In this document: positions 5,254 to 20,098 of the stretch, piece by piece
Numbering within the stretch: the stretch's first letter is position 1
Layout: the number at the start of each line of letters is the position of its first letter
NCBI GenBank assembly: GCA_964573325.1
Contig: CAZNJL010000001.1
Location: forward strand, 1 to 30,576
Length of the DNA: 30,576 bases
Reading direction: 5' to 3'
From: an uncultured Candidatus Saccharibacteria bacterium
GTDB lineage: Bacteria; Patescibacteriota; WWE3; UBA101185; UBA10185
Translations under genes and position numbers: made by a program
Notes under the pieces: generated by a model
Database searches by the model: none
Seen by the model: the letters and a program-made list of their open reading frames with translations, nothing else
What the model was told of the DNA's origin: nothing

Positions 5254-6537
5254 ATGCCAATATTTGGGTTTCCTTCGGGCGGCATAAACCGCGTCACCGG
5301 AACAAAAAAGCTCCCATTTAATCAAACTGAACCCTACAAACTGTTCATAGACATAAATTCCTGCTTTGCCACGATAGAACAGCAATACAATCCAAAGCTT
5401 CGAGGAAAGCCCATCGCAATAGCCGCCTATACGGGCCCGACGGGATGTGTAATTGCTGCCTCCGTAGAAGCTAAGAAGCTAGGGATAAAAACAGGTTTCA
5501 GGGTTAAAGAGGCGCAAAAGATCTGCCCAAATATAATTATCATGGAACCGAATCCCTTCAGATATCGCGCCGTACACAAAAAGTTAAAGGAACTGCTTTA
5601 CACGTACACCCCAAAGATTATCCCTAAATCCATAGACGAATTCTGCATAGATATAGAAAAAACTCCTGCGGAAAAAGTGGGTGCGGTGAAAACAGCCTTG
5701 GCAATAAAGCGCGATATAAAAACTAAGGTAGGGGATTGGATTACGGTTTCTATAGGAATAGGCCCGAATGAGTTTTTAGCAAAAACAGCGTCTAATTTAG
5801 AAAAACCTGACGGACTGCGGGTTATCGATAAAAGTAACTTTCAACAGGTCTTTTCCAAACTAAAGCTAACCGATCTATGCGGTATAAAATCAGCCAATGC
5901 CTCTCGTTTGGCCGCAAAAAAGATTTTTACAGTTTTGAATTTTTACAACGCCAACATAAAGGAACTTTGCACGGCTTTTGGTTCAATAGATGGGTATTAC
6001 TGGCACATGAGAATTCACGGATGGGATATGGCGACATCGTCGCAACCACAAGAAATAAAAAAGTCATTTGGAAATTCTTTTGCTCTTCCGGGGAAACTAC
6101 AGAAAAAGGAAGATTTAGCGCCTGTGCTGTACGAATTGGTAGAGAAAACCGCAACTCGGTTGAGGCGCGAAGGTTACAAAGCGAAAAGCTTTAGTTTAAA
6201 CATTAACTACAGAGACGGCACTTTGTGGAAAGACCACAAAAATACTGGTAAATACACAGATGAGACAGCCGAAATATACCGTTTAATGTTTAAGCTGCTT
6301 GCTAAATGCCCCCACGAAAAACCGATCAGAGTTTTAGCCGAAACCTGCTTTAAGGTTGCTAAGACCAGTCAAAAACAGCTTGGCCTGTTTGAGTCCACAA
6401 GCACGGCGGAAAAGCGGGATGCTTTGTACGATGCGATAGATAAAATAAATCTAAAACACGGGGATATGACGATTAAACCGGCGGAGTTGTTGAAAGCGAA
6501 GAATTTTGCAAAAGATAGGATTGCTTTTGGGAAATAG
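5254..6537 (+). CDS. dinB: Y-family DNA polymerase (DinB/Pol IV-like)
   Basis: FIDINSCFA, CVIAASVEAK..GIKTG, SIDE catalytic motif, SIGIGPN.FLAK.AS..KPDG, little-finger domain. Exact start uncertain. Confidence 0.88.
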   Translation: MPIFGFPSGGINRVTGTKKLPFNQTEPYKLFIDINSCFATIEQQYNPKLRGKPIAIAAYTGPTGCVIAASVEAKKLGIKTGFRVKEAQKICPNIIIMEPNPFRYRAVHKKLKELLYTYTPKIIPKSIDEFCIDIEKTPAEKVGAVKTALAIKRDIKTKVGDWITVSIGIGPNEFLAKTASNLEKPDGLRVIDKSNFQQVFSKLKLTDLCGIKSANASRLAAKKIFTVLNFYNANIKELCTAFGSIDGYYWHMRIHGWDMATSSQPQEIKKSFGNSFALPGKLQKKEDLAPVLYELVEKTATRLRREGYKAKSFSLNINYRDGTLWKDHKNTGKYTDETAEIYRLMFKLLAKCPHEKPIRVLAETCFKVAKTSQKQLGLFESTSTAEKRDALYDAIDKINLKHGDMTIKPAELLKAKNFAKDRIAFGK

Positions 6538-6639
6538 ATATCAAGACACGAGAACAACGCGCATAGCATGATTTTTCACACCAAAATCCTGCCCATACTA
6601 AATTTGATAAACGCCCCCTCCTCCTGTAGTATTTGGGAA

Positions 6640-6939
6640 ATGGCAGGAAACTACTCACGAAATAAAGGCAGGCGGTTAGAACAAGAACTAGTTAATCTCC
6701 TAAAAGCCAAAAAAGTATCCGCCCAAAGAATAAGCATGATAGAAACAGGTCGTTGCTTAAAAGGCGACCTTTTAATACAGGACAGGTGGAAAGCAGAAGT
6801 TAAAGGCGGAGATCAGGTTCCCAAATTCAATTACTCCGCAGTTAAAGAAGGCGAAGAGCTACTTTTCATGAAACGCGACCGGGAAAAGTGGCTAGTTTGT
6901 GTAGACCTTGATTGGTTTACCGAAAATCTCCTTAATTAA
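6640..6939 (+). CDS. Small PD-(D/E)xK nuclease, Hjc/phage Holliday-junction-resolvase-like
   Basis: SRNKGRRLEQELVNLL...KGDLLI...AEVK pattern. Start placed at ATG 6640 (TAGTAT 7 nt upstream). Confidence 0.7.
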   Translation: MAGNYSRNKGRRLEQELVNLLKAKKVSAQRISMIETGRCLKGDLLIQDRWKAEVKGGDQVPKFNYSAVKEGEELLFMKRDREKWLVCVDLDWFTENLLN

Positions 6940-16750: not shown

Positions 16751-17935
16751 ATGAAAATCTCGATTGATAAAAAGGAGGCCCTAGAAAAGCTCATCCAATG
16801 GTACAAAAACGAAAAGAAGCCACAATGTATTACGCTAGGAGGTTATGCCGGCACAGGAAAAACTACTTTAATTAGCGTCTTCAGATCCGCTATCAAAAGC
16901 ATAGATCCTGAGATAAATGTGGGATTTATAAGTTACACGGGCAAAGCCACGCGCATTCTAAAAAATAAATTGCAGGAGATGGGCGTACTGTTTCCCAAAG
17001 ACAGCATATCTACAATCCACTCGCTAATCTATTCACCAATTGTTAATTCCAAAAATGAGATTATCGGGTGGGATCGGCGCGAAGATATAGATAAAGACCT
17101 GCTTATCATAGACGAAGCCTCCATGGTAAGTGAGGATATCTGGATAGATCTGATAAGCTACAAAAAGCCGATTTTTGCGGTTGGCGACCACGGACAGCTT
17201 CCTCCAATAGGCGAAAAATTTAATCTTATGGAAAAACCAAACCTGACTTTAACTCAAATTCATCGTCAGATAAGTGATAATCCGATAATTCAAGTAGCGC
17301 AGATAGCAAGAGAAACGGGCGCAATTCCATTTGGAAAGTACGGAGAAAAAGTCCAAAAATTGGATAAGACTTCGTGGGAAACACAGGAAATTATCACTCA
17401 ACTTTTGGAAAATTATGATGAAGATACAATAATTCTATGTGGTTACAATAACACTAGAGTCAAAATAAATACTCAAATCAGGCGATTTCTGGGATATGAA
17501 ACATCGTACCCGGAACACGGCGATCGTGTCATCTGTTTAAGAAATAATCAGGCAAGGGGAATTTTCAACGGAATGCTGGGTCAAATAGTAAACATTGAGC
17601 CTTTAAACGAAAATTGGTATCACGCTAAAATAGACATGGAAGATGGTTTTACTTTTGTGGGGCCAATATCTAAGGCGCAATTTAATAGCTCACAACCTAT
17701 AAATTTTACCGAAAACCGCCGGGACACTTTAGACGGCGATCTATTTGACTTTGGATACGCGATGACGGTTCATAAGGCGCAAGGAAGTCAAGCAAAACGT
17801 GTGATTTTATTTGAGGAGCGCTTTAAGCAGATGAACGATGAAAAATGGAGAAGATGGCTATATACCGGCGTAACTAGAGCTGAAGAAGAGTTGTATATTG
17901 TCGGCGAAGGTGGAAAAGAAACGAAATACGAGTAA
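16751..17935 (+). CDS. SF1B helicase, RecD/Dda-like
   Basis: GYAGTGKT, STIH, IIDEAS, GDHGQLPP, IHRQ, FNG, YAMTVHKAQGS, LYTGVTRA. Confidence 0.92.
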   Translation: MKISIDKKEALEKLIQWYKNEKKPQCITLGGYAGTGKTTLISVFRSAIKSIDPEINVGFISYTGKATRILKNKLQEMGVLFPKDSISTIHSLIYSPIVNSKNEIIGWDRREDIDKDLLIIDEASMVSEDIWIDLISYKKPIFAVGDHGQLPPIGEKFNLMEKPNLTLTQIHRQISDNPIIQVAQIARETGAIPFGKYGEKVQKLDKTSWETQEIITQLLENYDEDTIILCGYNNTRVKINTQIRRFLGYETSYPEHGDRVICLRNNQARGIFNGMLGQIVNIEPLNENWYHAKIDMEDGFTFVGPISKAQFNSSQPINFTENRRDTLDGDLFDFGYAMTVHKAQGSQAKRVILFEERFKQMNDEKWRRWLYTGVTRAEEELYIVGEGGKETKYE

Positions 17936-18722: not shown

Positions 18723-18799
18723 CGGGGTGTAGCTCAGTTGGCTAGAGCGCGCGGTTTGGATCCGTGAGGTCGCAGGTTCGAGTCCTGTCACCCCGACCA
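18723..18799 (+). tRNA. tRNA-Pro (TGG), CCA encoded, A at position 37
   Basis: C1-G72 acceptor CGGGGTG/CACCCCG, A73, anticodon arm CGCGG-TTTGGAT-CCGTG. Confidence 0.96.
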
Positions 18800-18929: not shown

Positions 18930-19721
18930 TTATTCGTTTTTTACCGCATCTTCATCCGGAAGTTGTTCTCCAGGTACTAATTCTTGAGATAATTCCTCTT
19001 TTGGTTGCTCTTTATAAAACGATACTTGAAAACTATTTTTTATAAGCTCTTCACAGAGCAAAGTTAATTCATTTATTTCTTTACCTGATAATTCGGTATA
19101 GGCTTCGAAATCAGAAAATGTGGAAGCCTGGAGAATTCCGCCAACCCTACCATCCTGAGATTTTGTCTCACTAAGACAAAAAGCCCCAAGTGTAAGTGCT
19201 TGCTCAATTGTTATATCACCTCTTAGATATAACCTATTCAATAAATAATTAGCTATAGTGGGTATCCCTGATGTTGCAAAACCTGTTGTAGTTGTTTCGG
19301 GTGCGAATTGCCTAAAACTGCTCAAACGAATTATTTTAGGATCTGAAAGTACATCATCATTATTTACAGCATAACCGCAAACAAGAACTGTAAAATCTGG
19401 AATCAATCCAGATTCAATAGATAGACCCTCAAACCAAGTTCTGTAACGTTCCATACAGAACAATCTAAACCTCTCACAAATCTCAATTACAGTTATTTTT
19501 TGATCTTCATTTACAAATTCTTTTTGAAACCCTTCGATCAAACTGACACCCATTTCACCACTTCCAGATATTCCCATCGCACAATGATCTGTTATTTTAA
19601 ATATTTTCTTAACAGTGTCATTAGACTGGGTTGCTGCTGCATTAGGATTTCCCATAGACATACGACTGTCTGTGGTTATAACAATTCCATCTTTAGCTAT
19701 TAAACCAATAATTAATGTCAT
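18930..19721 (-). CDS. Proteasome beta-subunit-like Ntn hydrolase (Thr protease) without propeptide
   Basis: After Met removal: T1, D17-S18-R19, KI motif (K33 equivalent, 5-aa insertion), SG (G47), TSG (S129-G130), D..VGG (D166 region). Confidence 0.85.
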   Translation of the reverse strand: MTLIIGLIAKDGIVITTDSRMSMGNPNAAATQSNDTVKKIFKITDHCAMGISGSGEMGVSLIEGFQKEFVNEDQKITVIEICERFRLFCMERYRTWFEGLSIESGLIPDFTVLVCGYAVNNDDVLSDPKIIRLSSFRQFAPETTTTGFATSGIPTIANYLLNRLYLRGDITIEQALTLGAFCLSETKSQDGRVGGILQASTFSDFEAYTELSGKEINELTLLCEELIKNSFQVSFYKEQPKEELSQELVPGEQLPDEDAVKNE

Positions 19722-20083
19722 TCTAGATTAATTGAAATTTGAGGTCCGGAAGGTGAAGTTAAATTGCACGAAGGAGCATAATGGCTGTGTAAAAATAATT
19801 CGGCACCGTCTCTTACTCTTCTATTCTCAACGCGAGCATACCTTACAAAACACTTATTGTTTGAAAGCATTCTTTTAATACAAATATTTGTTTCACTCTG
19901 ATTCAAGTGCTGAGACATTCTGGCATTAAGATTTTCAGCCTGGCCAACATAGAAAACGTACTTGTTACCATCTCCTGACTGATAAGACAACCTATAGACA
20001 CCAGAAGAACTTGGTATTGTAACTAGTGTGCTCAAAAGATTTAAATCTATTAACTTAGACCATTTTAGTGTCCAACTTTCCAT
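19718..20083 (-). CDS. Stand-alone GIY-YIG nuclease
   Basis: GVY...YVG motifs, catalytic R (NARMSQH), metal-binding E (GAELFL), N (PSCN); ATGA overlap with the Ntn gene. Confidence 0.85.
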   Translation of the reverse strand: MESWTLKWSKLIDLNLLSTLVTIPSSSGVYRLSYQSGDGNKYVFYVGQAENLNARMSQHLNQSETNICIKRMLSNNKCFVRYARVENRRVRDGAELFLHSHYAPSCNLTSPSGPQISINLE

Positions 20084-20089
20084 AAATAT

Positions 20090-20098
20090 ATTGTAGCA
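20090..20098 (-). promoter_or_regulatory. Extended -10 promoter (TGcTACAAT) for the GIY-YIG/Ntn operon, leaderless geometry
   Basis: Six nt separate TACAAT from the ATG at 20083, the same geometry as at many housekeeping genes here. Confidence 0.65.

Follow-up and report, generated by a model that had tools for sequence, protein, structure and literature searches.

A proteasome-type threonine hydrolase gene and a GIY-YIG-fold gene form a candidate mobile two-gene cassette in Patescibacteria

Many bacterial and archaeal relatives of the proteasome have no ATPase partner, and their functions are obscure. One such relative is encoded on a 30,576-nucleotide (nt) stretch of DNA from an uncultured Candidatus Saccharibacteria bacterium (assembly GCA_964573325.1, contig CAZNJL010000001.1; the whole stretch is hereafter called the window), where its gene directly follows a gene for a protein with the GIY-YIG nuclease fold. 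What might a proteasome-type protease do beside such a protein? Both genes lie on the minus strand. The first (19718..20083) encodes a stand-alone GIY-YIG-fold protein of 121 amino acids (aa), called the partner below, and the second (18930..19721) encodes a 263-aa hydrolase of the N-terminal nucleophile (Ntn) type with a Thr1 residue and no propeptide; both were identified from open reading frames (ORFs), Pfam matches, AlphaFold2 models and Foldseek searches. The partner stop codon and the Ntn start codon overlap in a 4-nt ATGA (19718..19721, minus strand, read from the sequence). A first-pass annotation of the window had described this overlap, and its coordinates and strand were verified. 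It had also proposed a promoter with leaderless geometry: an extended -10-like motif, TGcTACAAT (20090..20098, minus strand), is followed after 6 nt by the partner ATG at 20083, and reading of the sequence found no Shine-Dalgarno motif before this ATG. The geometry is as described and the promoter is a motif match only; a two-hexamer promoter scan did not list it, and in the two closest relatives with upstream sequence (L001 and L002) TATAAT, likewise a motif match only, lies 6-7 nt 5' of the ATG. The two genes are predicted to be co-transcribed from this motif and translationally coupled through the ATGA overlap. Our preferred reading, to which we give a probability of about 0.5, is that horizontal transfer moves the two genes as one cassette and that their products are an obligate pair, acting in a conflict module for either defence or addiction.

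The pair recurs far beyond the window, and far more often than chance would give. Assemblies, species genomes and metagenomes yielded 113 loci, and the count of pairings was restricted to the 101 loci with at least 380 nt 5' of the Ntn gene. A gene of the partner family was found directly upstream of the Ntn gene, on the same strand, in 81 of these, in many unrelated contexts and with gaps of -8 to +13 nt (-4 nt in 21 of the 81). The 20 unpaired loci form a single clade with 100/100 support that is nested among paired sequences and, therefore, the pairing appears to be ancestral and to have been lost once. The sequence identities of the two proteins correlate across 54 distinct pairs (r = 0.77, with none of 999 Mantel permutations as high), which shows co-inheritance of the two genes through the history of the family. 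No fusion of Ntn and GIY-YIG genes was identified among 99 homologs (145-460 aa length range searched). Searching in the other direction, a profile of the partner matched 279 cluster representatives at E ≤ 1e-10, nearly all of 118-125 aa; a typical representative (E-value: 1e-25) is paired with an Ntn gene.

Two groups of loci depart from this arrangement. Members of the partner-less clade (for example, L075, L083, L086, L088, L090, L092, L097, L099, L108 and L110) carry a block encoding a ParA/MinD-like ATPase with a CBM48 domain, a DUF4870 membrane protein, a 130-aa protein and the Ntn protein, with the Ntn gene at approximately 6001-6717 in most of these loci. The 130-aa protein, encoded directly upstream of the Ntn gene, has a Lys-rich tail, and from its sequence this replacement partner looks as if it might be a nucleic-acid binder. 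The genes 3' of the Ntn gene in this clade encode a 60-aa Cys-rich Rho_N-like protein, a 61-aa Zn-ribbon-like protein and DUF134. At two other loci, the Ntn gene is split into two overlapping pieces (L025:6001-6772, 199+82 aa; L031:6001-6697, 149+128 aa). Both are in species genomes, one of which is a closed 929-kb Berkelbacteria chromosome, and both retain an intact partner gene; the breaks are frameshifts or assembly errors.

Within the 54 distinct pairs, the catalytic residues of the two proteins have had very different histories. T1, D17, K33 and G47 of the protease are kept in all 54, while the six-residue catalytic set of the partner is complete in only 34. The catalytic Arg of the partner has been replaced in the other 20, at least six separate times. 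Fifteen of these replacements fall in one clade with 100/100 support (six to Lys or Thr, nine to Glu or Asp), where the Glu/Asp partners mostly also have Leu or Ile in place of H59 and Phe in place of Tyr at position 30 or 45; at least five further independent replacements, to Trp, Gln, His, Lys and Ser, were identified elsewhere. Ratios of nonsynonymous to synonymous substitution rates (dN/dS), which are approximate because dS is near saturation, are about 0.23 for the partner in the Arg-to-Glu clade and 0.135 where the catalytic set is intact, with protease values of 0.10 and 0.055, respectively. Both genes are under purifying selection, the partner of the Arg-to-Glu clade included. As the protease is invariant and the partner Arg has been lost repeatedly under selection, the protease is the constant core of the pair, and the essential role of the partner may be non-catalytic. 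The first-pass annotation had suggested that the protease gates the nuclease. This cannot be the mechanism of the whole family, as the Arg is repeatedly replaced and the protease residues never are. The natural Arg-less variants provide a ready-made comparison for the catalytic role of the partner.

The same asymmetry would be expected if the small protein served only to assemble or gate a proteasome-like, ATP-independent particle, as one of its subunits, in general or stress proteolysis and without any link to DNA. Partner residues W8, P104, P111 and N119 are more conserved than its active site, and the partner-less clade has replaced the partner with a different small protein encoded upstream, both of which suit such a subunit. 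However, retention of the full GIY-YIG set in 34 of 54 partners is difficult to explain without catalysis, and the rarity of the pair and its restriction-modification and recombinase contexts (described below) are unlike those of a housekeeping function. We therefore consider this explanation decidedly unlikely.

Under the conflict-module reading, the proteasome-like protein would be an active threonine peptidase independent of any ATPase, with the GIY-YIG protein as its DNA-directed partner, and the two proteins would form a complex that acts in anti-phage defence or addiction. The indispensable role of the partner would be binding or regulation rather than catalysis. In lineages with an intact GIY-YIG site, including that of the window, the partner might also cut DNA as an effector. 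In those lineages the protease would control the partner, by degrading or processing it or by being recruited by it to DNA-bound proteins. A more specific and tentative version, which we regard as unlikely, is DNA-guided proteolysis, in which the nuclease-fold subunit targets an ATP-independent threonine peptidase to DNA-bound phage or plasmid proteins, or is activated by the peptidase. If this were true, the hydrolase would be the first proteasome homolog known to have a dedicated partner other than an ATPase, and the first proteasome-family protease in prokaryotic immunity.

The distribution of the cassette is sporadic. It was found in two of 401 sampled genomes of the phylum and in none of 12 other genomes searched from the source family, and 18 cassette loci were identified among 185,579 species genomes. 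Named records with the pair are nearly all from the ultra-small bacteria of the Patescibacteria, with a few binned elsewhere; one metagenome copy adjoins polA and a gene for DUF2480, a family that we take to be known mainly from Bacteroidota. No relatives were found in IMG/VR (by pattern scan), among INPHARED phages or among PLSDB plasmids. Among 243 neighbour proteins, for which annotation was limited to recurrent clusters and to large or adjacent genes, 192 were singletons and, therefore, there is no conserved third gene. Genes within 5 kb of the pair were counted in 31 non-redundant loci: these include tyrosine integrases in four and serine recombinases in two, and an IS1595 transposase gene lies directly upstream of the pair in one locus. 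Taken together, these comparisons show that the pair is a rare mobile accessory cassette that has landed in many chromosomal sites.

Such a distribution, beside integrases, recombinases and a transposase, would also be seen if the pair were an addiction module without an immune role, in which a GIY-YIG toxin is continually degraded by the co-translated protease and loss of the cassette frees the toxin, so that the mobile element is stabilized. The tight translational coupling with the nuclease gene first fits this model, as does the frame-broken protease gene of L025 and L031, which is expected from turnover of a selfish module. However, a stable protease paired with a labile toxin reverses the usual stability logic, the two copies with a broken protease still hold the partner, and purifying selection acts on both genes even in clades whose partner has neither the catalytic Arg nor the His. 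In our judgement, pure addiction is unlikely.

Restriction-modification genes recur in the surroundings of the pair. N6_N4 methylase genes were found near it in 11 of the 31 loci (35%), along with type IIG enzymes in three, HsdR in one and Mrr in two; in one locus a methylase-Mrr fusion is directly upstream. As a background, the phylum has approximately 2.2 PF01555 matches per genome of about 0.95 Mb, which corresponds to about 3% of 11-kb intervals. For the methylase enrichment, a background of p = 0.0275 gives a binomial tail of 3e-10, and one as high as p = 0.08 still gives 2e-5, although the background estimate is rough and the loci are only partly independent. Eight loci have the pair on the same strand as, and just behind, restriction-modification genes, with a gap of 2-4 nt in three. 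If this link reflects function, a proteasome-type protease would join the prokaryotic conflict systems, in a phylum, the Patescibacteria, with a poorly known defence repertoire.

In four loci (L063, L056, L051 and L044), an N6_N4 methylase gene and then one further gene were observed directly upstream of the pair. The gene in between encodes a DUF6996/DUF6997 protein in L063 (4841-5611, 24 nt gap to the pair) and unannotated proteins of 185-282 aa, with gaps of 2-4 nt, in L056 (4785-5633), L051 (4802-5626) and L044 (3850-4407). These genes probably encode uncharacterized type II restriction endonucleases.

The position of the pair directly behind restriction genes on the same strand is also compatible with a DNA-maintenance accessory, in which the partner brings the protease to DNA so that bound or cross-linked proteins are cleared. 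In one version, restriction alleviation, the protease would degrade a restriction enzyme that has stalled on host DNA, and UvrC-like incision would be an auxiliary step. A precedent exists in restriction alleviation in E. coli, where ClpXP degrades HsdR. Among solved structures the incision domain of UvrC is nearest to the partner, the pair adjoins uvrB, PolX, gyrB, dnaN or polA in some loci, and if the partner serves as a recruiter, a protease that never varies and nuclease catalysis that can be lost would both fit. However, a repair function should be wider and more vertical in its distribution than two of 401 genomes, and the housekeeping neighbours vary by locus and are likely incidental in compact genomes. 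The isoelectric point of the partner, which spans 4.7 to 9.1 across pairs, also gives no direct pointer to DNA binding. We consider this accessory role unlikely as well.

Several observations weigh against the conflict-module reading. It has been difficult to show protease activity for characterized stand-alone homologs of the proteasome, among them Anbu and BPH, and the repeated loss of the nuclease Arg speaks against a model in which the pair acts purely through a nuclease effector. The pair matches no catalogued anti-phage system model in PADLOC-DB 2.0. Elsewhere its neighbours are often housekeeping genes (rpoB, gyrB, dnaK, dnaN, pyrG, uvrB and trigger factor), and in the window they are a tRNA gene and ordinary or unknown genes. 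The approximate dN/dS values and the rough methylase background belong on the same side. The first-pass annotation had assigned the operon to a defence-island position; in the window the pair is not in a defence island and no recognizable defence gene adjoins it, while across loci it is associated with restriction-modification and recombinase genes. Weighing both sides, a defence or conflict role for the pair is plausible from its sequence and contexts.

Is the larger protein indeed of the proteasome type? It passes the Pfam PF00227 cut-off (45.9 bits against 22.4, E-value: 6.7e-12), with its N-terminal 70 residues matched. A profile built from 22 family members and searched against the PDB matches archaeal 20S alpha subunits as well as it does the beta subunits (both E-values ~1e-11), aligning to 20S subunits over up to 220 positions. 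The AlphaFold2 model has the proteasome (Ntn alpha-beta-beta-alpha) fold with a mean predicted local distance difference test score (pLDDT) of 83. Its best Foldseek matches are 20S beta subunits (probability 1.00, template modelling (TM) score 0.75-0.82 by target), while Anbu appears at rank 43. The protein starts Met-Thr, so that exposure of Thr1 would require removal of the Met. The match to proteasome beta residues read by the first-pass annotation holds for T1, D17, R19, K33, G47 and D166 but not in general for S129: the equivalent is Ser in the window protein only, and the other family members have Ile or Leu. At the S169 equivalent the window protein has Val, and neither serine position is conserved in the family. 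The C-terminal helix and acidic tail noted in the same annotation are seen in the model as a long helix at approximately residues 213-235 and a disordered tail with pLDDT below 55. Near its C-terminal end, the tail (window 18930-19030; alignment A2, columns 240-278) carries a short, semi-conserved motif that reads P-x-x-D-A-V/I in the 263-aa clade and, in many members of the 235-aa clade, Q/K-D-A-T/K. This motif comes after a conserved F-Y-P/K-E-D/x segment and could serve in docking or processing.

The closest sequence and structure matches of the Ntn protein, the 20S beta subunits (archaeal PsmB and actinobacterial PrcB; MEROPS T1), have the same catalytic residues, but the Ntn protein fails the curated models for PsmB (TIGR03634, 36 bits against a cut-off of 224) and PrcB (TIGR03690, 23.9 against 191.9), has no propeptide and belongs to a family in which the S129 and S169 equivalents are not conserved. 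It resembles HslV and Anbu, single-gene bacterial proteasome homologs that also start Met-Thr, and shares a long C-terminal helix with Anbu; however, it fails the HslV model (NCBIfam PRK05456, 12.2 bits against 137). In the source genome (764 kb, 84% complete), the Ntn gene is the sole PF00227 match, with no second gene that might encode an alpha subunit, and we found no HslU (best TIGR00390 match 19 bits, cut-off 362), no Pup ligase (PF03136), no ARC/PAN-type partner and no Anbu-type ATP-grasp (CP_ATPgrasp_1), the last being absent from the window as well. The Anbu operon consists of ATP-grasp, Alpha-E and transglutaminase genes; the neighbour here is a GIY-YIG gene in 81 loci. We know of no GIY-YIG partner for either HslV or Anbu. 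By the curated models the hydrolase is thus none of PsmB, PrcB, HslV or Anbu, and the initial statement that the usual partners of the last three are absent from the window holds for the genome searched as well.

This family has probably been seen before. The survey by Fuchs, Alva and Lupas (2021; PMC8665760) sorted orphan proteasome homologs into 22 clusters and states that neither a genomic context nor a co-occurrence pattern was found for any of them. The Ntn family shares with these homologs the fold, Thr1/Asp17/Lys33/Gly47, the lack of a propeptide and of an AAA+ partner, and the long C-terminal helix. It is probably cluster PMI-3 (representative OGZ26396.1), or else WPH. In favour of PMI-3, a central family member (P0073) has accessions OGZ06653, OGZ13318 and OGZ17126, plus OFX11239, labelled 'Alphaproteobacteria', which fit the PMI-3 accession range and its 'Proteobacteria + other bacteria' table row. 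However, PMI-3 is described with insertions after H1/H2 and between H3/H4, where our model has only loops of 13 and 7 residues, alongside a long H5; WPH is described with a long coiled-coil H5, and WPH and group II proteins are, like the Ntn family, equally similar to 20S alpha and beta subunits (PMC8665760). The family itself had thus probably been catalogued, without any context, which weakens the first-pass reading of a new system; the loci collected here give it a strictly conserved partner gene. A co-evolving partner provides a testable hypothesis for one of these families.

The smaller protein is only just above the PF01541 cut-off (24.1 bits against 22.6, E-value: 4.6e-5), and its AlphaFold2 model has a pLDDT of 94.8. 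The sole significant PDB match in Foldseek is the N-terminal GIY-YIG domain of UvrC (1yd6; E-value: 3e-4, TM score 0.75 by target), and the model also matches AlphaFold Database clusters of GIY-YIG domain proteins. The window protein has the full six-residue set (Y30, Y45, R55, H59, E95 and N107), in agreement with the reading of its catalytic positions as intact. It shares with UvrC and with small stand-alone GIY-YIG proteins the fold and the motif GVY...YVG...R...H...E...N, but lacks the C-terminal domains of UvrC and has family-specific elements of its own, represented in the window protein by W8 at the N-terminus and P104, P111 and N119 at the C-terminus. The invariant positions across the family are W8, G28, R31, Y42, G47, A83, P104, P111 and N119, several of which fall in N- and C-terminal elements absent from UvrC. 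Unlike the UvrC domain and its small relatives, the partner has lost the Arg in 20 of 54 cases and in all pairs is placed before a protease gene.

GIY-YIG homing endonucleases are common mobile genes, and a free-standing enzyme of this type could in principle spread with a proteasome-like gene as cargo. The partner weakly matches PADLOC 'HEase' and the model for group I intron endonucleases, and its more remote relatives are found alone in mobile or phage-like surroundings. Three such atypical relatives, also among the matches of the partner profile, have no Ntn gene: a tandem double-domain protein of 241 aa (L116:1911-2636), a 199-aa protein followed by DUF2188 and an Imm_superinfect superinfection-immunity gene (L118:15-614), and a solo 141-aa protein near an integrase gene (L119:3001-3426). 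However, the partner consists of the catalytic domain only, with no DNA-binding domain, and scores 18.4 bits against a cut-off of 56 for TIGR01453; on these grounds an I-TevI/Seg-type identity was rejected. In addition, the two genes are strictly coupled and co-diverge throughout the family, the catalytic Arg has been lost in whole clades that keep the pair, and the same Ntn gene, at high identity, with and without GIY-YIG at otherwise identical loci was not seen in the 81 paired loci. A homing endonuclease with cargo is, accordingly, very improbable.

No paper connecting a proteasome homolog with a GIY-YIG partner or with phage defence came up in full-text searches, in accordance with the initial statement that no described system has this pairing; the pairing is new to the literature searched, while its parts belong to known superfamilies. 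In PADLOC-DB 2.0, the Ntn protein had no match and the partner had only weak ones (40-residue partial matches to PDC-S14 at 28.8 bits, besides 'HEase'). Bacterial gasdermin with its protease, CalpL-type Lon and Craspase offer a functional analogy only, in that mobile defence loci genetically link a protease with an effector or a target. To our knowledge, such modules use Lon, caspase-like or other proteases with sensor domains, and none uses a proteasome-family threonine peptidase or a GIY-YIG protein; in the Ntn/GIY-YIG pair, by contrast, no sensor is evident.

The surroundings of the cassette in the window complete the description of the locus. The operon was noted as AT-rich, and the GC content is indeed 0.33-0.35 over 19-21 kb, compared with approximately 0.40-0.43 in the rest of the window. 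DNA of the window was found in at least 11 lake-water metagenome runs, while the listing of runs contained none of RNA. The tRNA gene reported beside it is a tRNA-Pro(UGG) (18723..18799, plus strand, ARAGORN), which lies outside the cassette, convergent with it and 130 nt past the operon end. The probable recombinase remnant reported at the same place was not recovered: tblastn with integrases of four relatives and with other neighbours gave zero matches in the window. A 62-aa ORF upstream of the cassette had no family match. The window also encodes a RecD-like SF1 helicase (394 aa, 16751-17935, plus strand) that matches the PADLOC candidate PDC-M16A (E-value: 1e-42). However, 13 of 21 genomes of the family have this gene, and related genera also place it after tRNA-Leu in conserved order; we therefore read it as a core gene and not as defence context.

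The closest relative genome (G413) keeps the order tRNA-Leu, helicase, 222-aa protein and tRNA-Pro, and its syntenic contig (L113, G413:C2) stops exactly at the tRNA-Pro (5772-5848). The borders of the island are therefore not definable by comparison with an empty site. The contig end may reflect a variable or repeated region at the site that the cassette occupies in the window.

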